Notes: generated by a model from the sequence alone, not told the origin. A DNA stretch of 32,000 bases from Candidatus Helarchaeota ASGARD archaeon Hel_GB_B (GCA_005191425.1 SUPR01000008.1:25590-57589); one strand, 5' to 3'. Counted from the first letter of the stretch, positions 3,737-19,914 are shown. A program made the numbers and translations.

Positions 3737-5224
3737 ATGAAAAAATTAGTAGGGTGTGATAAATTGTTAGAAAGTAGTGAAAAACATGACATTATCAAGG
3801 AGAGCCTAATAAAAATTGTCGGAGAGCAATGGTATTCAGATTTTCCTGAAGAATTATTGATATATTCCTATGATATGACCGAAAATGACCCCAGTTTACC
3901 TGAATTTGTAGTAATGCCCAGGACTTCTGAAGAAATTCAGAAAATATTAAAATTTGCAAATGAAACTAAAACACCTGTCGTTCCATTTATTAGTGGAAAT
4001 AATGTGGGCGGACTTACAATACCTTTAAAGGGGGGAATTGTTGTAGATTTGAAACGAATGGACTCTATTTTACATTTTAATGAAGATGATATGTATGTCA
4101 TAATAGAACCTGGTGTTACATTTGGTCATTTGCATGCTTTTTTGGAAAAAACTAATTATAGGTATTGTTATCCATTTGCACCGCCATTTACTTCTGTTAT
4201 AGCAAATGCACTTCTTGATGGACTGAATAATTTGAGTTTAAGACACGGAAGTATGAATGAATGGATAAATGGGATTGAAGCAATACTTCCAAATGGTGAT
4301 TTAGTTAAAATAGGAACTTGCTGTGCTTGGGGTGATAATTATGATTTATGGTGGAGTAGGAACCCCATGCCCGATCTTCTTGGTCTTTTTACCAGTTGGC
4401 AAGGTATGACTGGTATTGTCACGAAGATGGCAGTTCAAGTATGGCCTCGAAGACCAATTAGGGATTGGAGGATTGTTTTATCTTTTAATGTTGAAGAGAC
4501 TTACAAATTTGTAAAGACTCTTACTCATTTAGAAATATTAAATGATATTCTTTTTATGTCAATTGAAACTGTAAAAATGATTGCTGGAGTACCATACGGT
4601 AAAGCCAAATATTTAGAAGGGGAGCCTCGTTGGGTTTGTCTATTAGATTTTTCTGCAAATACTAAATTAGAATATGAAGCTAAATTAGATATGATTAATA
4701 CTGCTTTTAAAAAATTAAAAGAGGTCGACCCAAAAGCTAATATGACTAATCTTGATGTAATGGAAAAGTTTTACGGAAAAAAAGTCGGTGATATAAAAAA
4801 TTTACCTGTCACGATTGGCCCAATGCTCGAATATGGCGGTCTAACATGGATGGGTACATATATGACAACAAAAACCGAAGCAGTCGTTAATGGAATAAAG
4901 ACTGCCTTTGATTTAATTGATAAATATAGATTTGAAAAATGCTTGTATTCTAGGTCTATGAAAGGGCATCATTATTTTGCATTTAGGTTTCTTTTACGTT
5001 TTTCTAAATTACAAGAAGGAGAAACTGAACGTATGCAAAAATTACAAGAAGAGTTGTTTAATAGTTTGTTTGAACTTGGTGCATTTCCATATAAGACTCC
5101 TGCTCGGTTTGCAAAACAGATTTTAAAGCGAGCAGACCCAAATTGGGTTAATTTGCTAAAAACTATAAAAAGTACAATTGATCCAAATGGTATAATGAAT
5201 CCAGGAAGATGGGGCTTAGAATGA
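3737..5224 (+). CDS. FAD-linked oxidase/dehydrogenase (GlcD / D-lactate dehydrogenase / VAO fold)
   Basis: 495 aa with PEFVVMP, SGNNVGG, VDLKRMD, EPGVTFG, GMTGIVTK and terminal DPNGIMNPGRW. Confidence 0.9.
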   Translation: MKKLVGCDKLLESSEKHDIIKESLIKIVGEQWYSDFPEELLIYSYDMTENDPSLPEFVVMPRTSEEIQKILKFANETKTPVVPFISGNNVGGLTIPLKGGIVVDLKRMDSILHFNEDDMYVIIEPGVTFGHLHAFLEKTNYRYCYPFAPPFTSVIANALLDGLNNLSLRHGSMNEWINGIEAILPNGDLVKIGTCCAWGDNYDLWWSRNPMPDLLGLFTSWQGMTGIVTKMAVQVWPRRPIRDWRIVLSFNVEETYKFVKTLTHLEILNDILFMSIETVKMIAGVPYGKAKYLEGEPRWVCLLDFSANTKLEYEAKLDMINTAFKKLKEVDPKANMTNLDVMEKFYGKKVGDIKNLPVTIGPMLEYGGLTWMGTYMTTKTEAVVNGIKTAFDLIDKYRFEKCLYSRSMKGHHYFAFRFLLRFSKLQEGETERMQKLQEELFNSLFELGAFPYKTPARFAKQILKRADPNWVNLLKTIKSTIDPNGIMNPGRWGLE

Positions 5225-6390
5225 GTGAAACTGAAGCAATTAATAAATATGTTGAAGAAATATATTGTTGTACAAGATGTGGGACATGTAAATATATATA
5301 TCAAGTTTATGATCCATCATGTCCCGCAGGCGTAAAATTCCGGTTTGAAACTTTTTATCCAAGTGGTAAAATTCATATTGCTAGAGGACTAATTGAAGGT
5401 AAAATTGAATGGAGTGAGCGAATTCGTGATATAATTTTTGCTTGTCCAACTTGTGCAAACTGTACAATTCAATGTCAATCAAGGCATCATGCACAGATTG
5501 TCGAAATAATTGAAGCATTAAGAGCTGATGCTGTTAGTAAAGGATTTGGACCCCTGCCTAATCAAAAGGCATTTGCCGATTCGGTTAAAAAGGAACATAA
5601 CCCTTACAAAGAAAAGCATAGCGATAGAATAAAATGGGCTAAAAATCTTGCCATCCCACAAAAAGACAAGGCTGAAATTTTGTATTTCGTTGGTTGTACT
5701 TCCTCATATAGACAGCAATCCTTGGCTCAAAAAACAGTTGAAATATTAAATAAACTTGGAGTAGATTATATTGTTTCCAGTGATGAATGGTGTTGTGGTT
5801 CTCCTTTAATAAGGACTGGCCAATTAGAACAAGTATCTCAATTAATTAATCATAATTTAGATTTAATCAAAAGTCTAGGGGTAAAAACTGTCATTACTTC
5901 ATGCGCTGGTTGCTATAGGACTTTAAAAATGGACTATCCTAAATATACCGATAAATTAGATGGAATTGAATTCCTCCACATTACAGAATTTCTACAGCAA
6001 TTCATTTCTAAAAAGAAATTAAAATTTAAAAAAGGAAAAGAATTTAAAGTCACTTACCACGACCCTTGTCATTTAGGTCGCCATTCTAATATCTATGAAG
6101 AGCCAAGGGCAGTATTAAACGCAATTCCTGGACTGAAGCTCATTGAAATGCCTCGAAATAGAGAAAATGCTTGGTGTTGTGGAGCTGGCGGCGGTGTAAA
6201 GGCAGGATATAAAGAATGGGCGGTCGAAATCGCATCTGACAGAATCCATGAAGCAGAACAGATTAATGCTGAAATATTGACCAGTGCATGCCCTTTTTGC
6301 AAAACTAATCTCCAAGATGCTATTAATGAAACAAATTCTAACATAAAATTCATGGACATTGTAGAACTTTTAAACGAAGTGATTATATAA
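5221..6390 (+). CDS. (Fe-S)-binding CCG-domain oxidoreductase subunit (GlcF/GlpC/HdrD-like)
   Basis: Two ferredoxin-type motifs (CTRCGTC...CP and CPTCANCTIQC) and CCG motifs (FVGC, WCCGSP, SCAGC, HDPCHLGR, CCGAGGG, SACPFC). Likely start is ATG 5221, an ATGA overlap with the upstream stop; the ORF track starts at 5209. Confidence 0.92.
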   Translation: MSETEAINKYVEEIYCCTRCGTCKYIYQVYDPSCPAGVKFRFETFYPSGKIHIARGLIEGKIEWSERIRDIIFACPTCANCTIQCQSRHHAQIVEIIEALRADAVSKGFGPLPNQKAFADSVKKEHNPYKEKHSDRIKWAKNLAIPQKDKAEILYFVGCTSSYRQQSLAQKTVEILNKLGVDYIVSSDEWCCGSPLIRTGQLEQVSQLINHNLDLIKSLGVKTVITSCAGCYRTLKMDYPKYTDKLDGIEFLHITEFLQQFISKKKLKFKKGKEFKVTYHDPCHLGRHSNIYEEPRAVLNAIPGLKLIEMPRNRENAWCCGAGGGVKAGYKEWAVEIASDRIHEAEQINAEILTSACPFCKTNLQDAINETNSNIKFMDIVELLNEVII

Positions 6391-7784: not shown

Positions 7785-9053
7785 ATATCTAGTAGAATTA
7801 AAGCTGTTGAAATTATTTACCGTGCAAGTGACTTAACTCTTGACCTTGTAAATAGAGTAATGACAGAAAATGAAATGGTAATTTTGAAAAGTTTCCTGAA
7901 AAATTTAATTTCTCATTTTGAAGATATCTTACAAAAAGCTGAAGAAGGTGTGCCAATAATCGGACATCATTTTGGGTTTCCTGGCGAAGTCTTACAATGT
8001 TTTGATAATATAGCAACTGTTTCTTTTGAAGCATTACCATATTTATATTCCGCATTGTTTCCACAAGGTAGCGAATATTTCTATGATGTAATGAATGGTT
8101 GGGGACATCCATATCATGTCTGTACCGCAATAAAAGGCCTTTTGGGTATGTTTAAAGAAAATTTATTAAATTTTGATGTCGTGCTATGTCCTTCAGGGCC
8201 ATGTGATAATGGTATTGGGAGTTATCCTGCTTATGCACAAATTGGAAAAATACCTTTAATAGTTGCTGATATGCCCTATTTACATAATGAACGCGGATAT
8301 TATTATTATGCTCGGGAATTAAAATCGGCATTAGAAAAAATTTAAAAAATTATAGGTCAAGAACCCGATTATTCTAGATTTAAAAAAGCAATTGAATATA
8401 GCAACAAAGCTCATGAATATTTTACTGAAATTAACCAATTAAGGAGGCTAGCTCCATGTCCTCTTGAGAGTATGGCAAATCCAATAATAACAGCAGCACA
8501 TGCTTTTTTGTCAGGTAAGCCACAATATACTAACTTTTTTAAAGATGTTTATGAAATTGCAAAAAAACGAGTAAAAAATAACCAAGGACGCTTTGGAGAA
8601 GAGAAGTTTCGGTCTATATGGCCATATATGTCTATCTTTTTCGATTTTAGCTTCTATGATTGGATGGACCGAGATTTAGGAATGAGCCAAATAATTGATA
8701 TTTTCAATCATTTCTTTTTCGATCAAGTATCTACTAAAAATATCGATGAAATGTTCTTAGGGCTTGCTAAAAAGTGGCATGAATATCCTATGATCAGACA
8801 AAGTCAGAGTTTTATAGATCAGATGATTGATGATTATGTGTGGGCAATAAAAGAATTTAAAATAGACTGTGCAATATTGACTGAACATATCGGTTGTAAA
8901 GCTCTTGCTGCTACAACACAAATCTTAAAAGAAGTTTTAAGAGACGAAGGTGTACCAATGTGTAATATCGAAATTGATGTTGGTGATAAGCGGTTCACAT
9001 CTATAGATTCAGTAAAACATGAAATTACTGAATTTGTAAAAACCATGCTCTAA
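7785..9053 (+). pseudogene. Dehydratase/reductase large subunit (HgdA/BcrB-like) interrupted by an in-frame TAA at 8343-8345
   Basis: ORFs 7860-8345 and 8472-9053 are in the same frame. Reading through gives LEKI*KIIGQEPDYSRFKKAIEYSNKAHEY..., which aligns without gaps to VNSVSKIIGQEPNFDNMIKAIEFNSKAHQY in the 248-1537 paralog. Homology also extends upstream of ATG 7860. A true pseudogene and a consensus error cannot be distinguished here. Confidence 0.8.
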
Positions 9054-9104: not shown

Positions 9105-10265
9105 TTAAAAATAAAATGGCCTTATCTGCTTTTGTAAATATTTCTTTTTAATATTTACTTTATACTTTTTTTCAATCTGGCTCATTAGATATTCATCTTC
9201 ATAAAATACAAATGATATTGCAGTACCTTTTTTTCCCATCCTACCAGTCCGACCTATACGGTGGACGTATGTTTCAATACTATCTGGCATATCAAAATTG
9301 ATAACATGCGTAATTCCTTCAATATCAATTCCTCTTGAAACTACATCCGTTGCAATTAGAAAACGTCCTTTATTTTTAAAATTATTCAATGTTCGTTCTC
9401 TTTGTCTTTGGCTTAGATCACTACAAATATACTCTGCTGAATAACCTAAAGATCTTAATTCATCACATAATTTTCTAGTTTCAACTCGCGTTTTAACAAA
9501 AATCAATATCTTTAGATTTTTTACCTTCGAGCCATTATTTGATATTTCGTCTAATATTCTTGTCAAAAGGTTAATTTTATCATTAGAATTTTCTATAATA
9601 TAATATATTTGATTAATTGATGATGGTACCTGCTCTTCATTCTTTCTTCTGACCGAAATTGTAATTGCATGGGGGGCATATTTTTTTGAAAGTCTTATAG
9701 TTTCATCTGGTATTGTTGCCCCAAAAAACATAAATTGTTGCTGTCCTTTTTGCCATTTCATATATCTTAATATTTGGTTTACATCCTCGTAAAACCCCAT
9801 ATCAAACATTTTATCTGCTTCATCAAGTACAATGATTTTTGGCTTAGTCCTTAGTCCATGTCTAAAATGGTCTAATAAACGTCCTGGAGTCGAAACTATA
9901 ATATGAACGCCTCTTTTTAATTGTTCCATTTGGTTATCAAATGAAACACCGCCATAAATTGACAATATTTTAATTCTGGTATATTTAGAAATCATTGTTA
10001 ATTCATCAGAAATTTGTTTAGCCAGTTCTCTCGTGGGAGAAATTATAGCTGCTTGAATCAAATTTTTATTTTCATCAATATTTTCAATAATAGGAATACC
10101 AAAAGCAAGCGTTTTTCCTGACCCAGTTTTTGCTTGTCCTATTAAACATTTACCCTTCATTAAATGAGGGATTGCTTTTTCTTGAATGTCTGTCGCTTCA
10201 ATGAACCCATTAGATGTGAGTCCTTTTAAGACTTTATCAGATAATTTTAATTCTGTAAATTTCAT
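9105..10265 (-). CDS. DEAD-box RNA helicase (minimal core)
   Basis: Q motif (GFIEATDIQ), AKTGSGKT, PTRELA, TPGRL, DEAD, GAT in place of SAT, RGIDI and HRIGRTGR. Confidence 0.97.
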   Translation of the reverse strand: MKFTELKLSDKVLKGLTSNGFIEATDIQEKAIPHLMKGKCLIGQAKTGSGKTLAFGIPIIENIDENKNLIQAAIISPTRELAKQISDELTMISKYTRIKILSIYGGVSFDNQMEQLKRGVHIIVSTPGRLLDHFRHGLRTKPKIIVLDEADKMFDMGFYEDVNQILRYMKWQKGQQQFMFFGATIPDETIRLSKKYAPHAITISVRRKNEEQVPSSINQIYYIIENSNDKINLLTRILDEISNNGSKVKNLKILIFVKTRVETRKLCDELRSLGYSAEYICSDLSQRQRERTLNNFKNKGRFLIATDVVSRGIDIEGITHVINFDMPDSIETYVHRIGRTGRMGKKGTAISFVFYEDEYLMSQIEKKYKVNIKKKYLQKQIRPFYF

Positions 10266-10442
10266 TAGATTTTACCTGTAAATTTTTAAATTTGTAAAAA
10301 ATAGTATCGAATAATTAAAAAATCTTTTACCATTTCTTATTAGAATGTGATTTAATAACCAGATTAATATTTTAATTTTTCCTTAAAATTTGCAAACAAA
10401 TCAAAATAATTTTCTAAATATTGAAAAAATTGGTGATTAAAT

Positions 10443-10943
10443 ATGAATATCGAAGAAAAAATAGCCCGCGAACTTGAAAAAGGAGAGACATTAATAGATT
10501 TAGGTTATTTAGATGAAGCACTCGAGCGACTTGATATTGTATTAGAATTAGATAATGATAATGAAGAAGCTTGGATGTTTAAATGCGCAGCTTTTGAACG
10601 TAAAGGTGATTTCGAAAATGCATTAAGGTGTATTGATAAAGTAATTGAAATTTCTCCAAGAAATAAAATGGCGTGGGATTATAAAGGTTATTTATTATAT
10701 AATTTAAAAGAATTTGAGAATGCTATTAATTGTTTTAAAAAAGCTATTGAAATTAATGATAAATATACTAATGCTTATTATAATTTGGCATGCTGTTATT
10801 CATTATTAGAGAAAAAATCTGATACTTTAAATACATTAAAAACATTGGTCCAATTAAAACCTAAAATTAAGACTGAAATTAAAAATGAAAAAGATTTTAA
10901 GTGGCTTTACGATGAACCCGACTTTATAAATCTTGTGGAATGA
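10443..10943 (+). CDS. Tetratricopeptide repeat protein
   Basis: 166 aa with TPR-spaced AW..K..A / AW.YKG / AYYNLACCY repeats. GGTGA ribosome-binding site upstream. Confidence 0.9.
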   Translation: MNIEEKIARELEKGETLIDLGYLDEALERLDIVLELDNDNEEAWMFKCAAFERKGDFENALRCIDKVIEISPRNKMAWDYKGYLLYNLKEFENAINCFKKAIEINDKYTNAYYNLACCYSLLEKKSDTLNTLKTLVQLKPKIKTEIKNEKDFKWLYDEPDFINLVE

Positions 10944-11295
10944 TTGATAATTATTTTTCTATTTTTATACATTTTTATGAATGGATATCTTTAAATTCTA
11001 ATAAATAATAAAAAATTATTTCAAATTTACATATTCTTTTTTGAATCTCTTTATGGTGAATATTAAATTCTTAAATTAATTAACTATTTGAAATAAAGTC
11101 CAACAAAAAAATAAAAATATATCTTGATTATTAGAAAAATTTTAATTAATTTTTTAAGAATTAATAAGTTAATAAAGCAAAAAAGAATATTTAAAATAAA
11201 TTATTTAAAAAAATCGGAATATTATATTATCATTTCTAATTATTGCATATCTGTACCAATAATTTATGATTTATCTTAAAAAAAAGGCGAGCTAT

Positions 11296-12072
11296 TTGAC
11301 TTTTAATGCAGGTTTAGATATAGGTTCATGTTATTGCAAATGCGTAGTAATTAATGAAAATAAAGAAATCATAGCAACATCAATTTCACCATTAGGTGGA
11401 AACCCCAGAAATGCTTCTAAACTTACTTTTGAAAATGCGTTAAAATCAGCAAATCTTAAAAGTAAAAATATTAAAAATATAGTTTGTGTGGGCAGAAATC
11501 GGAAAAAAGTTTCATTTAAAAGTCATGAGGAGTCAGAGATCAAGTGTATTGCAAAAGGAGCTCGAGAATTAATTCCGTCTTTAAGAACAATTGTAGACCT
11601 TGGTGCGCTAACCAATAAGGCAATTAAACTTAATTCAAATGGAAAAGTGGTCGATTATGTAATTAATGATAAATGCGCATCTGGAAGTGGGATGTTCCTA
11701 GAATTAGTAGCTAAAGCTTTAGAAATGGACATTAGTGATATCGATAAAAAGGCAAAAATGTCTGAAAATCCTCTCCCAATTACAAATCAATGTAGTATTT
11801 TTGCTGAAAGCGAAGTAATATATTTAGTTAATGAAAGTAAAAATGAAATCGACATAATTGCAGGCGTTACAAATTCAATTGCAAACCGAATATATTCACT
11901 CTTAAAAAGGGTAAATATGGAAAAAGATATTATTTTAACGGGTGGAGTCGCAAATACTAATTATATTAAGTTAAAATTAGAAGAAAGGCTTAATATGGAA
12001 ATAAAAGAACCTACTATTTCTCCAATTTATATCGCTGCATTTGGTGCATCCTTATATGCAAGTGAAATTTAA
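11296..12072 (+). CDS. ATP-dependent [4Fe-4S] activator (HgdC/BcrD-like, ASKHA fold), non-canonical copy
   Basis: GLDIGS, DLGAL, NDKCASGSGMFLE, NQCSIFAESE and LTGGVA. Likely start is TTG 11296 with GGCGAG upstream; the track starts at ATG 11266. Confidence 0.9.
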   Translation: MTFNAGLDIGSCYCKCVVINENKEIIATSISPLGGNPRNASKLTFENALKSANLKSKNIKNIVCVGRNRKKVSFKSHEESEIKCIAKGARELIPSLRTIVDLGALTNKAIKLNSNGKVVDYVINDKCASGSGMFLELVAKALEMDISDIDKKAKMSENPLPITNQCSIFAESEVIYLVNESKNEIDIIAGVTNSIANRIYSLLKRVNMEKDIILTGGVANTNYIKLKLEERLNMEIKEPTISPIYIAAFGASLYASEI

Positions 12073-12087
12073 ACCGGTGAATTTAAA

Positions 12088-12885
12088 ATGGCTAATTATT
12101 TAGGGATTGATATTGGGTCATTAACTGGAAAAGCAGTTATTATTGATGATAATAATAATATAAAAGCACAAAAAGTAATTTATGTAAAAAAAACACCTTT
12201 GAAAACTGTTAATGTACTATTAGACTCTATTTTGCCTGAAATTGGTATTGATGACCTCTCAAAAATAACTTATTGCGTTGGAACTGGTTATGGTCGTAGG
12301 AAAATACCTCTTGCTAATGAAACAATTAGTGAGATTACCTGTCATGGAACAGGTGCCCATCATGTTATGCCCTCTTTAAGAACTGTTATTGACATTGGTG
12401 GTCAGGACTGTAAGGTTATTAGGCTAGATGAAAATGGGAATTTAAAGAATTTTATTATGAATGAGAAATGCGCGGCAGGTACTGGGCGATACCTAGAATT
12501 AATGAGTGAAACTCTAAATATCCCTCTTGAAAAACTTGGTCCAATTTCATTAAAAACAAAATCGCCTGTATCTCTTCAAAGTAAATGTTCATTATACGCT
12601 CAATTTGAAGTTATTTCGCTATTAGGGGAAGGTATTAAAAAACCAGATATCGCAGCTGGAATAAATAAAGCAATGGCTGAAAGGGTCATAAATCTCGCTG
12701 AAAAAGTCGGTATTGAAGAGGACATAACTGTAAGCGGTGGAGTTGCTAAAAATATCGGTGTAGTTATCAATATGGAAAAATTACTGGGTATAAAATTTAA
12801 AAAACTACCTGTAGATCCCCAAATAATTGGTGCACTTGGGGCAGCTTTAATTTCAAGAAAATCCTTTTTAAAGAAAAACAGCTGA
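12088..12885 (+). CDS. ATP-dependent [4Fe-4S] activator (HgdC/BcrA-like), canonical copy
   Basis: GIDIGS, GTGYGR, EITCHG, DIGGQD, MNEKCAAGTGRYLE, SKCSLYA, SGGVAKN and GALGAA. GGTGA ribosome-binding site upstream. Confidence 0.93.
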   Translation: MANYLGIDIGSLTGKAVIIDDNNNIKAQKVIYVKKTPLKTVNVLLDSILPEIGIDDLSKITYCVGTGYGRRKIPLANETISEITCHGTGAHHVMPSLRTVIDIGGQDCKVIRLDENGNLKNFIMNEKCAAGTGRYLELMSETLNIPLEKLGPISLKTKSPVSLQSKCSLYAQFEVISLLGEGIKKPDIAAGINKAMAERVINLAEKVGIEEDITVSGGVAKNIGVVINMEKLLGIKFKKLPVDPQIIGALGAALISRKSFLKKNS

Positions 12886-13212
12886 TATTTTTACTTAAAA
12901 TGTCTATATTTTTTACTTCTACATCTTAATATTGATATTCTTTTCAGAGCCAGCAACCTTAATTTTATTATTTTTGAAAATAAATATAGAATATAAAAAC
13001 TTTTGAAATAATCACTTTAATGGAGTAATGAAACCTTTAAATAATTTAATAAATTTACCAAATCTCTTAACAATATCTATATTTAATAATTTAAGACAAA
13101 ATAAGTGTATTAATTTTTACGTTTATAATTATTTGAAAAACATTTTAGAACAATTTAGTCTAATAATTTCTTAATAATTATTTGATTTTTGATTTTTTGG
13201 TGTTGTGAAAAA

Positions 13213-15936
13213 ATGGATAAGAAAGCATTTGGGTCTGGATATTTTGGAGAATGGATTAAAGATGAGTTTGGTTTACCAGCATATAAATATAATTGCGATC
13301 AAATAAATGACCCCAAGGCAATTTCACCGACTAATGAATTTTGGAGGAAAAAAACGAACCATTCTCATCAAATTGGTAATGACCGACTAATTGGAGTAGC
13401 TTCTAATTATGGGTACATACAAGTCCGCCAAGATGAAGGGAGTCCAAAGTTTTTAAATGATTATGACCCGAGTCGTTATCAATATGGTGGTGGACTTGGT
13501 TTTTTAACTGATGGAAATATATTCTTAAGTACATATTACCCTGGAAATGCGGATTCATTTGACCGAATTTTTGGTATGGGTTATTATCGTAAAATTGTGA
13601 AGGGACATGGTCTATCTGTGGACCAAATTATATTTGCTCCTTTTGGAGATGACCCTCTTTTAATTTCTCAAGTAACTATTACAAATAATAGAGATAAACC
13701 AGTGGATTTAAATTGGATTGAATATTGGGGATGTAGAATTTATCAATTTTCTTACAAAGCATTTATGGCAGGGTTAATTTCTAAAAAATCGACAGTCCCT
13801 GATATACGAAGAAATTTTACGGATAAATTCATCAGAAAATTTTCAAAAATTAATGACCACGATGGCATTTTAGTATCTAGAAAATTTTTAGGTTTTAAAT
13901 TAATTGAACATTTATTATGGGGAGTAATGAATTTAGCCTTAGCGACTATAGCAAGGAGTCTATCTGGTGGATCGGTAAAAACACCAGTAAAAGAATCTAC
14001 CTTGGAAGATAAAACTCCACCAGATACATTTCTGGTCTCATTGGACAAACCAACAGATGAATTATCCATAGATGCTAGAAACTTTTTTGGGAGTGGGGGT
14101 GTAGAGAACCCAAGTGGAATTTTTGATGAATTCCAAGAAGATTTTAATTCTACCGAAGAAAATAATGGGCTATTTCTTAAACGGAAAATTAAATTAAATT
14201 CAGGTGAAAAGAAGACCTTATACTTTGCGTTTGGTTATGTTGAAGATAAAAACAATATTAATTCAATTGTTAATCATTATAAGAAAAATTACAAAGATTT
14301 ATTTGAAAAATCATGTGCTAAATGGAACCGAGATCGAATTAAACTATCAATTCATGATGATAAGTGGATTGATCGAGAATTAAAATGGCATTATTATTAT
14401 TTAAGAAGTAATTTAACTTTTGATAGTTTTTTTAAAGAACATATTCTATCACAAGGTCATGTATATCAATATTTAATAGGTTTTCAAGGTGCATCAAGAG
14501 ACCCATGTCAACATGCTCTACCATTCATTTATTCTGACCCTAGATTTGTAAAAGAAATCATCCGATATACATGTAAAACAGTAAAACCAAAGGGCGAGAT
14601 CCCATATGGAATTGTGGGGAATGGAGTAATACAACCTTCACCATTTAAACCAAGTGATTTGGAATTATGGCTTCTATGGCTAACAAGTGAATATGTGCTG
14701 GCATGGCGTGATTTAGATTTTCTTAATGAAAAAATACCAATGTACCCAATATATAAAGCCAAAAACAAGGAAGTCCGCATAATTGATATTTTACAATTAT
14801 GTTATAACCATTTTATAAATATTACTGGAGTAGGAATACACGGGCTTCAGAAATTATCAAATGGCGATTGGAACGACATGGTCATTCTTGGCTATGTACC
14901 TAAAAAGAGGCAAAAATCTATTAAAAACAGTGCAGAAAGTGTCCTTAATTCTGCAATGGCAGTTTATACCTTGGACTTATATTCCAAATTAATGAATTTT
15001 ACAGGAAAAATAGATTTGGCTGAAAAAATTAAATTAAAGGCAGAAGAATTGAAATCTGCAGTTAAGAAACAGTGGGCTAACTATTGGTTTAAACGGGCTT
15101 GGTTATCCCAAGAATATGGATGGGTCGGAGAAGATATATTATGGCTAGAACCCCAGCCCTGGACTATTATTGGTGGAATTGCCGATCAAGATCAAATTAA
15201 AATATTACTTAAATCAATTGACGAAAAACTTAGAAAATCATCAAAAATTGGTGCGACTATATTAAATGAGCCAATTTCGCATGTAACAGAAGAAAAAGGA
15301 ATGGCTACTAATGGTGGTATCTGGTTATCTATTAATGGGACATTAATCTGGGCATTAGCTTTAACCAATCCTGAAATGGCTTTAGATGAATGGAAAAAAA
15401 ATAGTTTGGCTTACCATGCAGAAGCATTTCCTGAAATTTGGTATGGAATTTGGAGTGGGCCAGATACTTATAATTCTCATTTCTCGGAATTTGAGGGTGC
15501 AACTCTATTTTTCGACCCAAATAAAAAGGCTAAAGGACTTAATGTCAATGTAAACTGGACTGACTTTCCAGTAATGAATATGCACTCTCATGCATGGCCT
15601 TTATATTCTGTTATCAAACTTCTCGGGATCGAATTTTCACCTAATGGGCTGGAAATTAAACCCTCAATTCCAAAAGATGAATATGAATTTTATTCCCCCC
15701 TAATTATGTTTAAAAAAACGGAAAATGGATATACTGGGCACTATTCTCCCAATAAAATTGGTAATTGGAAAATTTCCATTATTCTTCCTGAAAATGAAAT
15801 AGAAAACATAGAAAAATTAGAAGTTAATGGAAAATCTATTATGTTTAACAAGGAACAAGATAGAATTGAATTTGAAGGTAAAAGTTCGGCTAAAAATCCA
15901 CTAAAATGGACTATAATTAAAAAATTTACTCAATAA
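13213..15936 (+). CDS. GH94-like (GH36-type) (alpha/alpha)6 glycoside phosphorylase/hydrolase, divergent
   Basis: GFQGASRDPCQ, SDLELWL, GIHGL...GDWND (catalytic Asp region), AESV, WFKRAW, WLEPQPW, NGGIW and LGI....GLEIKP match the order of GH94 motifs. Likely start is ATG 13213 (907 aa); the track starts at 13189. Confidence 0.75.
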   Translation: MDKKAFGSGYFGEWIKDEFGLPAYKYNCDQINDPKAISPTNEFWRKKTNHSHQIGNDRLIGVASNYGYIQVRQDEGSPKFLNDYDPSRYQYGGGLGFLTDGNIFLSTYYPGNADSFDRIFGMGYYRKIVKGHGLSVDQIIFAPFGDDPLLISQVTITNNRDKPVDLNWIEYWGCRIYQFSYKAFMAGLISKKSTVPDIRRNFTDKFIRKFSKINDHDGILVSRKFLGFKLIEHLLWGVMNLALATIARSLSGGSVKTPVKESTLEDKTPPDTFLVSLDKPTDELSIDARNFFGSGGVENPSGIFDEFQEDFNSTEENNGLFLKRKIKLNSGEKKTLYFAFGYVEDKNNINSIVNHYKKNYKDLFEKSCAKWNRDRIKLSIHDDKWIDRELKWHYYYLRSNLTFDSFFKEHILSQGHVYQYLIGFQGASRDPCQHALPFIYSDPRFVKEIIRYTCKTVKPKGEIPYGIVGNGVIQPSPFKPSDLELWLLWLTSEYVLAWRDLDFLNEKIPMYPIYKAKNKEVRIIDILQLCYNHFINITGVGIHGLQKLSNGDWNDMVILGYVPKKRQKSIKNSAESVLNSAMAVYTLDLYSKLMNFTGKIDLAEKIKLKAEELKSAVKKQWANYWFKRAWLSQEYGWVGEDILWLEPQPWTIIGGIADQDQIKILLKSIDEKLRKSSKIGATILNEPISHVTEEKGMATNGGIWLSINGTLIWALALTNPEMALDEWKKNSLAYHAEAFPEIWYGIWSGPDTYNSHFSEFEGATLFFDPNKKAKGLNVNVNWTDFPVMNMHSHAWPLYSVIKLLGIEFSPNGLEIKPSIPKDEYEFYSPLIMFKKTENGYTGHYSPNKIGNWKISIILPENEIENIEKLEVNGKSIMFNKEQDRIEFEGKSSAKNPLKWTIIKKFTQ

Positions 15937-15950
15937 TTCAAGGAATTAAA

Positions 15951-17123
15951 ATGAACTCACGTGAACGCGTATTAACTACATTTGAACACCAAGAACCCGA
16001 TAAAATTCCAATCGATTTTGGAGGTAATCAATCGGGAATACATATTATTGCTTATAAAAATTTACTTAAATATTTGGATATAGATGATAAAAATATTAAA
16101 TATTGTGATTTTATCCAACAATTGGCATATCCTTGTGAAGAATTATTAAAACGATTTGAAGTTGATATCCGTTGGCTTAGACCGCCAAAATCACTTTTAC
16201 CTGAAAATTTTATGCCAATAATTGAAGGGAAATATATTGGGATTTATGACCAATTCGGTGTATTTTGGGGCGATAGTAAGGAAAAAGATGTCAAGGAAAT
16301 ATTATATTATTCACCCCAAATCCATCCTCTGGAAGATTTAAATACTATAAATCAAATTAAAAATTTTGACTGGCCTGATGGGACTGATAAAAAGCCATTT
16401 AAAGGACTCCGAGAACAAGCTAAAAAGCTCCGTAAAAATACTCAATATGCTATAGCTGTTCCTCCATTAGGTTGTAATTTTGAGTATACTACATTTCTAT
16501 TTGGTTTTAAAAAGGCCCTTAGCCATCTCAGAAGAAAACCCGAACTAATTGTCGCTGCAATGGAAGAATTAAAAAAATATTGGACTGATTATGCTACTAC
16601 TTTTTTGAATGAAATTAAATTTAATAACGAATTTTATGTTGATATAGTTGCTGTTAATAGCGACCTTGCTATGCAAACAGGGCCACTTATGGACCCAGAA
16701 AAAATATATGTCCCAATAATTAAACCAATTGAGAGAGACTTTTCTCAAAAACTGCATAGCCTTGCAAATATCAAGATCAATTTTCATTGTTGCGGTTCTA
16801 TAGCTCCATTTATACCACATTTTGCCGATATACAATATGATGCAGTAAATCCCGTTCAAATTGGAGCTTATGATATGGAACCTTGTAGTTTAAAGAAGAG
16901 GTTCGGAGAAATAATAACTTTTTGGGGCGGTCTCTGCGACTCTCAACATACACTACCATATGGACCTTTGAAAAAAATAGAAAATGAAGTCAAATATAAC
17001 TTAGAATGTTTCAAAAAAGGCGGTGGATATATAGCTTCGAGTGTGCATAATATAACTTCAGAAGTACCACCTGAAAACATAACTACAATGTTTGATACAC
17101 TAATAAAATATAGAAAATATTAA
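15951..17123 (+). CDS. UroD/MtaA-family (cobalamin-dependent methyltransferase-like) TIM-barrel protein
   Basis: MNSRERVL....HQEPDKIPID, FHCCG, AVNPVQ, GGGYI and VHNI....PPEN. Starts 14 bp downstream of the GH94-like gene. Confidence 0.88.
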   Translation: MNSRERVLTTFEHQEPDKIPIDFGGNQSGIHIIAYKNLLKYLDIDDKNIKYCDFIQQLAYPCEELLKRFEVDIRWLRPPKSLLPENFMPIIEGKYIGIYDQFGVFWGDSKEKDVKEILYYSPQIHPLEDLNTINQIKNFDWPDGTDKKPFKGLREQAKKLRKNTQYAIAVPPLGCNFEYTTFLFGFKKALSHLRRKPELIVAAMEELKKYWTDYATTFLNEIKFNNEFYVDIVAVNSDLAMQTGPLMDPEKIYVPIIKPIERDFSQKLHSLANIKINFHCCGSIAPFIPHFADIQYDAVNPVQIGAYDMEPCSLKKRFGEIITFWGGLCDSQHTLPYGPLKKIENEVKYNLECFKKGGGYIASSVHNITSEVPPENITTMFDTLIKYRKY

Positions 17124-17153
17124 TTTTCTTAAAAATAAAAGGATTTTATCAGT

Positions 17154-18323
17154 TTATTCATCAATTTTAATTGGATAATTTCCATATTTTTCTCTAATTC
17201 TCATTACAGCTTCCCATCTATCAATAGTGACCGCAGGGTTGATACTATGTCCACTACTAAAAATGTATCCTCCTCCTGGAGCCAAAACTTTAATTAACTT
17301 CTTAGAATATTCCTCAATTTCTGAAATCTTTCCCTGGCTCAACATTACTGGACTAATATTCCCAACAAATGTTAATTTATCACCATATTTTTCATGTAAT
17401 TTGAAAATATTATAATCTGGATTTGCAGTAGTCGGTTCAATCGGATTAAGAGCATCAACCCCTGAACTTACAATATCTTCAAAAATTTGCATTAGATCTC
17501 CATCAGAATGCAGTAATATCTTAGAATCGTTTTTATGCGCAGCTTCACAGATTCTTTTTATCCATGGAAATACATATTGTCTATAATTCTTAGGACTCAT
17601 GAACAGTCCATTTTTAAAGCCATAGTCATCCCATAAAATAATCAGTCTTGCTCCATTTTCTGCCAATATCTTGACCATTTCTAAAGTAAACTCTCCTCTA
17701 TCATCAAATACTTTTTTAATTTGTTTTCTATGGGCTAATAAACGTGAAAAATTCTCTAAGCCAAATCCTTCCCACGTGCATTCCATCAATGCCCCCACTG
17801 CAGGAACATTAAAAACTTCATGTTTCATTTCATTTTCAAGATCTTGTCCCGCAAGAAAATTTATAATTCGTATTTCGTCATTAGGGTCAAGTTGTTCCCA
17901 ACTTTCATAATCATCAAAGTCCTTAAAGAAACCCCCATAATATCCTAAAATTATTGTCCCATCTCCACTGTATTTCTCAAGTTTCATAATTCTCCCATAT
18001 TCATCTATGAATCCGTTCTTTATTATTTTTCGGGGAAATAAGGATGCTACTGATATACCAATATCTAATTTTACCCTCCTGCTAAATTCAAATATCTCTT
18101 TTAATCCTTTTGCTACTAATTTTCTATTTTTTAAAGCACTCCTCATTATACTATGACGAAAAGGTATAAATCTTAGTATTTTTAAACCTGCAAACAGTCC
18201 AGCACTGGGTTTTATCCCATAATGCCGCATAATTGTATTATTTGTAAATGCACTTTCAAATGCTGGAACTCGGTCAGGTTCCTCATGATTAATAGCCATT
18301 AAAACCCTTGTAGGTGCGTCCAT
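17154..18323 (-). CDS. UroD/MtaA-family methyltransferase-like protein, second copy
   Basis: RVLMAINHEEPDRVP, WDDYG...GLFMSP, LHSDG, LNPIEP, GNI and GGGYIFSSGHSI. Starts 2 bp after the corrinoid gene. Confidence 0.88.
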   Translation of the reverse strand: MDAPTRVLMAINHEEPDRVPAFESAFTNNTIMRHYGIKPSAGLFAGLKILRFIPFRHSIMRSALKNRKLVAKGLKEIFEFSRRVKLDIGISVASLFPRKIIKNGFIDEYGRIMKLEKYSGDGTIILGYYGGFFKDFDDYESWEQLDPNDEIRIINFLAGQDLENEMKHEVFNVPAVGALMECTWEGFGLENFSRLLAHRKQIKKVFDDRGEFTLEMVKILAENGARLIILWDDYGFKNGLFMSPKNYRQYVFPWIKRICEAAHKNDSKILLHSDGDLMQIFEDIVSSGVDALNPIEPTTANPDYNIFKLHEKYGDKLTFVGNISPVMLSQGKISEIEEYSKKLIKVLAPGGGYIFSSGHSINPAVTIDRWEAVMRIREKYGNYPIKIDE

Positions 18324-18325
18324 TA

Positions 18326-18967
18326 TTAACCCTCCATTAAAATGTTTATATGTCTAACTCCGTCTATTGCATCATTTGCATAATCATCGGTTCCCATCTT
18401 TTTTGCAATTTCCATATTTAATGGTGCCCCACCTACAATTATTTTCACTTTATCTCGCAATCCCGCACTTTTTAATGCGTCTACAATGTTTTTAATTTCT
18501 TCGATAGTCATAGTAAGCAAACAGCTTAAAGCAATAACCTTTGCTTTTGTTTTTTTAATTGCTTTTATAATCTTATTAGCAGGGCAATTTGTCCCTAAAT
18601 CAATAATTTCGTATCCGGCAGAAATCAACATCGTAATTAATATATTTTTACCAATATCATGATTATCTCCTTTAACTGTTGCACAAATGATTTTTCCTTT
18701 ATTTCCTTGCTCATCTGCTTTTAAATATGGATTTAATACCGTCATTGCGTCCTTCATTGTCTCTCCCGCTAAAATAAGGTCTGTTAAAAAATATTCTTTT
18801 CTTTCATACAACCTTCCTACTTCGTCCATACCCTCTGTTAATACTTGTAATATTTGTTTGGGATCTGTACCTGCATCTAATTCAGCTTGAACAGTTTCTT
18901 TTATTTCATCTACATTTAAGTCGATAATTAATTCTTTTATTTTATTTAATGTCAAATTAAAGACCAT
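18326..18967 (-). CDS. Corrinoid (B12-binding) methyl-carrier protein, MtaC/MtbC-like
   Basis: N-terminal cap domain (GMDEVGRLYERKEYFLTDL), DxHxxG motif (GDNHDIGKN), ALSCLLT and IIVGGAP. Confidence 0.95.
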   Translation of the reverse strand: MVFNLTLNKIKELIIDLNVDEIKETVQAELDAGTDPKQILQVLTEGMDEVGRLYERKEYFLTDLILAGETMKDAMTVLNPYLKADEQGNKGKIICATVKGDNHDIGKNILITMLISAGYEIIDLGTNCPANKIIKAIKKTKAKVIALSCLLTMTIEEIKNIVDALKSAGLRDKVKIIVGGAPLNMEIAKKMGTDDYANDAIDGVRHINILMEG

Positions 18968-19236: not shown

Positions 19237-19914
19237 TTAATTAAGTAATCTATGTTTATTATAACTCCAGATTAAGTCATCAAATTCTAGTGGATACAAT
19301 TTATTGTTGTAATAATCTTCGATTAACTCTATGATTTTCTTTTGACATAGTTCATATTTTTCTTTATCTATATTTGTTAAACTAGTCAAATTCATTTTTA
19401 GGGTTTGTAGCATGAATCTATCAATCGGCGAATTAAACCATTTTATTACTTTTTTGGCATATTCTTGGTCTGGTATATTGCTATAATAAAATACAAATTT
19501 TGTTGCAACGTCAATAATTTTAGCGGCTTGCCCCCAACTTATTCTACTTGTCGTTTGAGTTTTGACAGGTTTGATATTTTTAATTGCCCATTTACAAAAT
19601 TCATCGTGTAGTTCTACGTAGTCTTCTCTTCTTTCCATTTCGAACATTTTATTTATAGTATTGAATAATTTTGGTAATATCAATTCTTTTGATCTAGTTG
19701 AGAAATTTCGGAGCATAGTACTTATATTTAGTGATATATTTATTATGTTCTTAACTTTAGCTTCCATTACTTCTCTATAAAAATCTTTTTCTATTACTTC
19801 ATCATCTGAATACATCCTAATCCCCGTATCTCTATTACATTTTGGACATTTATTGTCTTCGGCAGACTTACCTTCCCATGTATAATTACACTCAAAGCAT
19901 ATAAATTTAACCAT
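19237..19914 (-). CDS. Hypothetical protein with N-terminal zinc ribbon (CFEC-x16-CPKC)
   Basis: 225-aa ORF with ATG start and AAGGT upstream. The C-terminal region (WGQAAKIIDVATKF, NSPID, LEFDDLIW) is not assigned with certainty. Confidence 0.75.
   Translation of the reverse strand: MVKFICFECNYTWEGKSAEDNKCPKCNRDTGIRMYSDDEVIEKDFYREVMEAKVKNIINISLNISTMLRNFSTRSKELILPKLFNTINKMFEMERREDYVELHDEFCKWAIKNIKPVKTQTTSRISWGQAAKIIDVATKFVFYYSNIPDQEYAKKVIKWFNSPIDRFMLQTLKMNLTSLTNIDKEKYELCQKKIIELIEDYYNNKLYPLEFDDLIWSYNKHRLLN

Follow-up and report, generated by a model that had tools for sequence, protein, structure and literature searches.

The Locus

We describe here a four-gene locus in a 32,000-nucleotide stretch of DNA from Candidatus Helarchaeota archaeon Hel_GB_B (GCA_005191425.1, SUPR01000008.1:25590-57589), hereafter the window, in which a gene resembling those of glycoside hydrolase family 94 (GH94) lies next to genes for two proteins of the URO-D/MtaA superfamily and a small corrinoid protein, and which we consider a candidate module for the catabolism of a methylated glycoside. 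Positions are counted from the first letter of the window. The genes form two operons that converge on a short spacer, as follows.

13213-15936, plus strand: GH94-like gene (hereafter GH), 907 amino acids from the ATG; PF17167 at 6e-21, and PF06165
15951-17123, plus strand: URO-D/MtaA-superfamily protein B, 390 amino acids; PF01208 at 1e-13
17124-17153: AT-rich 30-bp spacer separating the convergent 3' ends of the two operons, as read from the sequence
17154-18323, minus strand: URO-D/MtaA-superfamily protein A, 389 amino acids; PF01208 at 4e-26
18326-18967, minus strand: corrinoid protein (CP), 213 amino acids; PF02310 and PF02607

GH and B are separated by 14 bp, the 3' ends of B and A by 30 bp, and CP and A by 2 bp, a gap at which the latter two are probably co-translated. 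Open reading frame (ORF) calling and Pfam analysis thus reproduce the four genes, the converging operons, and the three gaps given by the initial annotation of this DNA, which had also reported that no MttB, MtmB, or MtaB gene is present; indeed, no window ORF of at least 100 amino acids matches any of these families. The G+C content of the window is ~30%, and the named best relatives of its genes come from Asgard archaea, GH being closest to Helarchaeota (62% identity).

Conservation of the Gene Neighborhood

We fetched 80 GH loci (44 archaeal, species-representative, and 36 bacterial), called their ORFs, and searched them with phmmer and with hidden Markov models built from the module proteins. 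The following genes were found within 5 kb of GH.

URO-D gene: 33/44 archaeal loci, 8/36 bacterial loci (in one of them fused to GH)
Corrinoid protein: 13/44 archaeal, 1/36 bacterial
MFS_2: 17/44 archaeal, 1/36 bacterial
Sulfatase: 17/44 archaeal, 3/36 bacterial
MetE-like, a related fold: 0/44 archaeal, 5/36 bacterial
ROK kinase, SIS, and SDR: 0/44 archaeal, 11-13/36 bacterial

The association of GH with URO-D genes is far above chance, the expectation being a URO-D gene within 5 kb in ~4% of loci (12 URO-D genes in a 3.54 Mb genome), and the adjacency plainly recurs in other genomes. A layout common in Asgard loci has MFS_2, A, and CP on one strand and GH, a third URO-D paralog (C), and B on the other; the A-CP pair is kept. 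Loci labelled Thorarchaeota, Helarchaeota, Hermodarchaeota, Atabeyarchaeia, and Promethearchaeota show this layout; in Hodarchaeales it is rearranged.

Co-occurrence, which the initial annotation had suggested counting, was followed in one set of 151 Asgard genomes (53 genera), used for all searches. GH orthologs (at least 48% identity) and B orthologs (at least 58% identity) are each found in 21 genomes, 20 of them common to both, and the two proteins occupy the same 10 of the 53 genera. C orthologs are present in 19 genomes, all inside the GH set, and A orthologs in 21, of which 18 are inside it. Within four genera (g5, g18, g25, and g42) the module genes are jointly present or absent. In family f2 they often lie on different contigs, so the pattern goes beyond synteny.

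Two other neighborhoods of the GH clade were seen. In Terriglobia loci, GH is followed by genes for an MBL-fold hydrolase, a MetE-like protein (Meth_synt_2), an SDR, a SIS-domain protein, and a ROK kinase; this order is found in locus L034 (12763-17366) and in 10-12 other Acidobacteriota loci, not all of which possess the MBL-fold and MetE-like genes. Neither URO-D nor corrinoid genes are neighbors of GH in these Terriglobia-type loci. Their SIS protein was considered as a MurQ-like etherase and rejected, the match being weak (4.6e-6) and far below the cutoff. An Asgard sub-clade of short GH proteins (~890 amino acids) also has a fixed neighborhood of its own (L013, L022, L024, L028, L044, L052-L055, L057, and L059), which comprises a sulfatase, MFS_2, GH, a convergent URO-D gene, a digeranylgeranylglycerophospholipid-reductase-like flavoprotein, and a GNAT protein; the URO-D protein is very divergent and carries an H-C-C-G motif. 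The gene order around GH in L033, from a record titled Nanopelagicaceae bacterium, is identical to that of the Asgard short-GH loci, and this contig may be misbinned.

The GH94-Like Protein

At the start of GH, a GGTG lies 11 nt upstream of the ATG at 13213, a TTG at 13189 would yield 915 amino acids, and the database copy of the protein has the same 907-amino-acid length. GH is the sole PF17167 gene of the genome. Searched as a profile against the PDB, it matches GH94 phosphorylases at 5e-26 to 1e-22, and its AlphaFold model (predicted local distance difference test score, pLDDT, 79.5; predicted template-modelling score, pTM, 0.86) retrieves with Foldseek only GH94 structures among the top ~30, over the whole length, with target template-modelling (TM) scores of 0.62-0.73 at 15-18% identity. 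The protein has the architecture of the family, an N-terminal beta-sandwich followed by an (alpha/alpha)6 catalytic barrel.

The catalytic general-acid Asp is also in place. The stretch G551-D552-W553-N554-D555 does not vary among 22 family members and lines up with ADWND of 3qde, so that D555 corresponds to D483 of that structure. The phosphate site is a different matter. GH94 phosphorylases bind phosphate through a His and an Arg (H666 and R351 in Cellvibrio gilvus numbering); in GH, the GIFCHNN of 3qde (H653) aligns with GIWPSIN, in which an invariant S706 replaces the His, and MSRSAS (R344) aligns with ILSQGH, which has no Arg, in a sequence alignment that is weak at the Arg site. Because the phosphate-binding His is a Ser and the Arg is absent, GH may not be a phosphorylase and could instead act as a hydrolase.

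No signal peptide was seen in any of the four proteins when their N-termini were read by eye. Since GH has none, and since an MFS_2 importer is its neighbor in other genomes, the enzyme is probably cytoplasmic and cleaves an imported glycoside rather than an extracellular polymer. The initial annotation had GH releasing a methylated sugar from a glycan, a picture that needs revising toward such an imported substrate and toward an enzyme without the phosphate-binding residues of the family.

Within the GH clade, which spans Asgard lineages, Acidobacteriota, Chloroflexota, and other phyla, identities are 50-60% (~50% between Asgard and Acidobacteriota members), and relatives are present in 409 species-representative genomes.

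The URO-D Proteins

A, B, and C belong to three distinct URO-D orthogroups with ~23% mutual identity. Both window proteins have the URO-D TIM-barrel fold, as judged from PF01208 and from models of each: the Atlas model of B is of URO-D fold with a pTM of 0.92, and the model of A (pLDDT 87) is closest to MtaA (4ay7/4ay8) at a target TM score of 0.74. A and B are ~390 amino acids long and possess divergent N-terminal halves outside the Pfam coverage; C has 347 amino acids and is MtaA-like throughout.

An H-x-C metal motif is the mark of the methyltransferase branch of this superfamily, and the true URO-D decarboxylases (HemE) do not have it. C carries the full motif, H-x-C ... C, aligned with that of MtaA (4ay7), and H-x-C is retained in the other GH-linked paralogs (H-x-C/D overall), including a fourth orthogroup, D. 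B has H279 and C281 ... H366 as its predicted metal triad, and its invariant residues are strongly polar. A has H272-S-D274 ... H359, and its Hodarchaeales ortholog shows H-x-C, with Cys for Asp. On these alignments, the motifs of B and A are plausible variant metal sites.

The curated NCBIfam cutoffs for MtaA, MtbA, and mtaA_cmuA (235-600 bits) are not reached by either protein: A, with weak MtaA and CmuA matches, scores 44-61 bits and B 26-30 bits. Searched against cluster representatives, the B profile retrieves 13,549 at E <=0.001. We attempted to separate A and B structurally into a methyltransferase I (MT I), which demethylates the substrate, and a methyltransferase II (MT II), and gave this up, as the A model is equally near MtaA and URO-D in Foldseek; CdmB (9rui), the only solved MT I, is not among its Foldseek matches and is probably newer than the library. 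The initial annotation had one of the two proteins methylating the corrinoid and the other passing the methyl group on, a division that needs revision: these roles cannot be assigned to A and B, both with divergent N-terminal halves, and the most MtaA-like partner is C.

The C ortholog of this genome (60% identity) is on another contig than the window genes (C125:1232-2278, minus strand), among a mannosidase-type GH2 fragment, another GH2, a GH78 alpha-L-rhamnosidase, and a third GH2 (C125:1-9000). A paralog of A (34-35% identity), at 4540-5712 (minus strand) of the C92:9000-20000 region, adjoins genes for a CobN-type chelatase and a VWA/AAA chelatase subunit.

The Corrinoid Protein, Gene Fusions, and Docking

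CP consists of a B12-binding_2 cap and a B12-binding Rossmann domain, with the motifs D101-x-H103-x-x-G106, S148-x-L150, and G179-G180 invariant. Its best PDB matches are 4jgi (8.5e-45), the corrinoid protein of a Desulfitobacterium O-demethylase, and 1y80. It matches TIGR02370 at 4e-52, under the cutoff, and belongs to no named equivalog (133-177 bits against cutoffs of 215-450).

Gene fusions tie the components to one another. In P0256, B12-binding_2 and B12-binding domains share one chain with a B-type URO-D domain, which aligns with the whole of B at 34% identity and preserves the H-x-C and H residues. This protein was found by an exhaustive profile search with B; a word-indexed search of close B homologs returned only ~390-amino-acid orthologs and no B12-binding fusion. 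In two Chloroflexia-type proteins of ~1450 amino acids (P0073 and P0083), GH94-like, URO-D, and C-terminal SCP2 domains are joined in one chain. Their URO-D domain belongs to orthogroup D, so these fusions tie GH to the URO-D family and not to B itself. The fused genes occupy 10001-14356 of loci L001 and L018, and in an Anaerolineales genome URO-D and SCP2 form a separate gene near GH (L003, 12458-14071).

A docking model of B with CP obtained a score of 0.83, whereas the best of three controls obtained 0.00; three runs agree in at least 90% of contacts, and the partner pLDDT is at least 84. Of 80 solved complexes 58 attained this mark, as did 2 of 110 mismatched pairs, counts that apply only approximately here because the alignments were made for this analysis. 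In the model, the cobalamin face of CP (the DxHxxG, SxL, and GG regions) sits over the mouth of the B barrel, and B looks like a CP-binding methyltransferase.

The Rest of the Proposed Pathway and Flanking Genes

The initial annotation had pointed to a reductive activator and Wood-Ljungdahl genes as things to be sought elsewhere in the genome, and they are there. One full-length RACo activator (C141:6085-7992) has the Fer2, linker, middle, and ASKHA domains; two MtrH-like genes, one Pterin_bind gene, CdhC of the carbon monoxide dehydrogenase/acetyl-CoA synthase (CODH/ACS), and ~8 small corrinoid proteins are also encoded. Among O-demethylase components, then, CP and two URO-D proteins are in the window, and RACo, the two MtrH-like proteins, the Pterin_bind protein, and the MtaA-like C are elsewhere. 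An MFS_2 ortholog (47% identity) lies on contig C140, adjoining a GH66-like gene; with C on C125, the module is therefore split over at least three contigs in this genome.

An ORF of 609 amino acids (C103:29848-31227) scores 246 bits against MCR_alpha_N and 36 bits against MCR_alpha, and is a divergent methyl-/alkyl-coenzyme M reductase (MCR) alpha subunit, as reported for Helarchaeota. Coenzyme M (CoM) may therefore be available as a methyl acceptor. To our knowledge, Thorarchaeota, Atabeyarchaeia, and Hodarchaeales are not known to use CoM; since the module is also found in those lineages, CoM is unlikely to be its general acceptor.

Two sets of flanking genes were considered as members of the module and rejected. 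The benzoyl-CoA-reductase-like genes upstream (BcrAD/HGD-D) recur near GH in just 1 of the 80 other loci and were left out for that reason. So was a 225-amino-acid ORF at 19237-19914 (minus strand), 270 bp upstream of the CP gene, because it matches no Pfam or NCBIfam family and lacks homologs around GH in the 80 other loci. Two adjoining plus-strand ORFs of the window, at 7860-8345 and 8472-9053, correspond to the N-terminal (profile 4-108) and C-terminal (160-339) parts of HGD-D; a dehydratase/reductase subunit has here been split or frameshifted, or else the sequence is in error.

Proposed Function and Alternatives

Synteny, co-occurrence, fusions, and the docking model together make it very probable that GH and the methyl-transfer genes are functionally coupled, and the linkage drawn by the initial annotation is in this respect that of a conserved unit. 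That A and B are corrinoid-dependent methyltransferases we regard as probable. Our preferred reading, that these genes form the heart of a conserved module by which a methylated glycoside is broken down in the steps below, we put forward at about even strength.

In this proposal, an MFS_2 symporter of the glycoside-pentoside-hexuronide type, a gene of the common Asgard layout, would import the substrate, and the cytoplasmic GH94-like enzyme would cut the glycosidic bond by means of the Asp of GDWND, probably not using a canonical phosphate site. The URO-D proteins, with their predicted metal site H-x-C/D ... H/C, would present the methyl ether to the Co(I) form of CP. The resulting methyl-Co(III) would be handed on by an MtaA-like partner (here C, on contig C125) or by an MtrH/pterin-type methyltransferase, and the methyl group would enter the tetrahydromethanopterin (H4MPT)/Wood-Ljungdahl pathway. 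The RACo-type activator encoded on contig C141 would return oxidized cobalt to its reduced state. The direction of methyl flow, the respective roles of A and B, and a sugar O-methyl ether as donor are what we infer.

Several observations weigh against this proposal and should be kept in mind. Because the profiled genomes are related to one another, they amount to fewer independent cases than their number suggests. CPs like that of the window (at least 56% identity) are spread more widely and also occur in many GH-negative genomes. A CP gene is near GH in just 13 of the 44 archaeal loci and one of the 36 bacterial ones, and many Acidobacteriota loci have a GH with no URO-D neighbor, so GH does not always need URO-D partners. 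A, B, and C are only remotely related to characterized enzymes, all falling below NCBIfam cutoffs; the PDB match of A to CdmB has an E of 5.7e-4 and that of B to MtaA one of 0.083. The docking model would probably also pass for any related methyltransferase/CP pair and is thus no proof of a specific B-CP pairing. Lastly, the presence of SCP2 in the fusion proteins may point to a hydrophobic ligand or a hydrophobic aglycone.

This last point leads to the question of where the methyl group resides. If it were on the aglycone, for example in a lignin-derived phenolic glycoside or a methoxyflavonoid rhamnoglucoside, GH would strip the sugar and the URO-D proteins with CP would form an aryl O-demethylase like Mto, Odm, or Vdm. 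Such a system fits 4jgi, the O-demethylase corrinoid protein of Desulfitobacterium that CP matches best in the PDB, and also the fusion of SCP2, a binder of hydrophobic ligands, to a GH-linked URO-D domain in Chloroflexia. GH78 and GH106 rhamnosidases, which act also on flavonoid rhamnosides, occur near paralogs, and the benzoyl-CoA-reductase-like/2-hydroxyacyl-CoA-dehydratase-like set stands just upstream in the window. Characterized UroD-superfamily MT I enzymes, except the haloalkane-specific CdmB, act on methoxy-aromatics, and Mto homologues have been reported in Loki- and Helarchaeota (PMC8359953, PMC13222342).

The contexts of B relatives point the other way. One locus of a B-family relative holds GH106, two RhaM, four sulfatases, GH29, GH95, and three URO-D genes; in the operon of another (L094), a sugar ABC importer is followed by URO-D, GH43, two more URO-D genes, CP, and an FGGY kinase; and in two further loci the neighbors include sugar ABC importers, with transketolase, DUF4432, and LacI genes also present in one of the two (the sequence around P0244 and P0256 is too short to inform). 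In this genome, the GH2 and GH78 genes around C and the GH66-like gene next to MFS_2 add to the sugar link, as do the ROK kinase, SIS, SDR, and MetE-like genes that accompany GH in Acidobacteriota. These are surroundings of sulfatases, fucosidases, GH43, sugar importers, and sugar kinases, not of aromatic catabolism. Because B relatives sit in operons with sugar importers and carbohydrate-active enzymes, we favor a sugar-borne methyl ether over methoxy-aromatics, and offer it from these contexts tentatively, as a proposal just short of an even one. The strongly polar invariant residues of B, the remoteness of the likeness of A to CdmB, and the near absence of the upstream BcrAD/HGD-D genes from other GH loci likewise argue against a methylated aglycone, which we hold to be unlikely.

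A second alternative separates the GH-linked paralogs B and C from the A-CP pair in function, B and C being metal-dependent sugar-modifying enzymes (a decarboxylase or other TIM-barrel chemistry) and A-CP a methyltransferase system that travels along. In its favor, the URO-D family was founded on decarboxylases, a URO-D gene without a nearby CP is seen in many GH loci, and the neighbor of related fold in Acidobacteriota is MetE-like, again with no CP nearby. The H-x-C motif, however, belongs to the methyltransferase branch and not to HemE; the B-type domain is fused to B12-binding domains in P0256, a B-family gene and CP share the L094 operon, the B-CP docking model beats its controls, and A, B, C, and GH follow one phyletic pattern. 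We therefore judge this alternative improbable.

It is very improbable that the module is biosynthetic, with GH acting in the reverse direction to make glycosides, as a synthase or transglycosylase, and methyl groups being supplied by the corrinoid system to yield a methylated glycoside. GH94 phosphorylases are reversible, a GH94 domain occurs within cyclic beta-1,2-glucan synthase, and MtaA-type enzymes do move methyl groups from methyl-corrinoid to an acceptor; yet the neighbors are catabolic (an importer-type MFS_2 and, in relatives, hydrolases, sulfatases, and sugar kinases), GH does not possess the canonical phosphate site for sugar-1-phosphate chemistry, and we know of no corrinoid-dependent O-methylation of sugars. 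That the two operons are adjacent by chance and share no function is scarcely credible, for although they converge rather than form one transcript and the genes often lie on different contigs in sister family f2, the synteny is repeated in several Asgard lineages, GH and B overlap in 20 of 21 genomes, and gene fusions exist.

Comparison with Known Systems

The catabolic module that we propose can be set beside four kinds of characterized enzymes. GH resembles the GH94 phosphorylases of cellobiose, chitobiose, cellobionic acid, and cellodextrin (3qde, 2cqs, 4zle, and 1v7v) in architecture, in the GDWND Asp, and in cytoplasmic location; it differs from them in its 15-18% identity, in having Ser706 for His and no Arg, and in its URO-D or MetE-like partners. 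The clade, with its 409 species-representative genomes, is strongly conserved and probably not one of phosphorylases. The URO-D proteins share the TIM barrel with the MtaA/MtbA methylcobamide:CoM methyltransferases (4ay7) and have a putative metal motif at the same positions, complete in C; they depart from them in the residues used (H, C, H in B and H, D, H in A) and in scores that fall far short of the equivalog cutoffs.

Among known systems, the nearest to this module are the three-component O-demethylases (MtoABCD of Methermicoccus and Archaeoglobus; Odm, Vdm, and Mtv of acetogens and Desulfitobacterium) and the CdmBCA chloromethane system. Like them, the locus places a UroD-superfamily methyltransferase beside a small DxHxxG corrinoid protein (PMC8359953, PMC13222342), in a genome with a RACo-type activator, an MFS transporter gene, and a route to H4MPT and the Wood-Ljungdahl pathway. 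Unlike them, it contains no activator and no evident MT II gene, involves up to three URO-D paralogs, bears only remote similarity to the characterized MT I enzyme (A to CdmB, 5.7e-4), and is linked to a GH94-like glycosidase through synteny, fusion, and co-occurrence, with relatives in sugar operons. The GH94-like partnership, the set of three URO-D paralogs, and the sugar context are its new features. We know of no corrinoid O-demethylase system tied to a GH94-like glycosidase with relatives in sugar operons, and a full-text literature search returned no paper on corrinoid-dependent sugar demethylation or on URO-D genes in glycan loci.

Plant and algal glycans commonly contain methylated sugars, among them 4-O-methyl-glucuronate, 2-O-methyl-fucose, 2-O-methyl-xylose, 6-O-methyl-galactose, and 3-O-methyl-rhamnose. 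It is possible, and we advance it with some reserve, that Asgard archaea and several anaerobic bacterial phyla possess an oxygen-free corrinoid O-demethylase for such sugars that works with a non-phosphorolytic GH94-like glycosidase and feeds the Wood-Ljungdahl pathway. If true, this would add a substrate class to the corrinoid methyltransferases and a link between glycan breakdown and one-carbon metabolism, explain the consumption of methylated sugars in sediments and guts, give Asgard archaea an extra source of carbon and energy, and provide a function for a very large family of unnamed "uroporphyrinogen decarboxylase family" genes (the cluster representatives counted above). The gene set is small and well defined, and the idea is directly testable in vitro.

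The only sugar demethylation route known to us requires oxygen: in the breakdown of algal glycans, a cytochrome P450 of marine bacteria is reported to demethylate 6-O-methyl-D-galactose oxidatively. Both that route and the module proposed here would remove a methyl ether from a sugar, but the P450 depends on oxygen and releases formaldehyde, whereas the corrinoid module would operate free of oxygen and conserve the methyl group.

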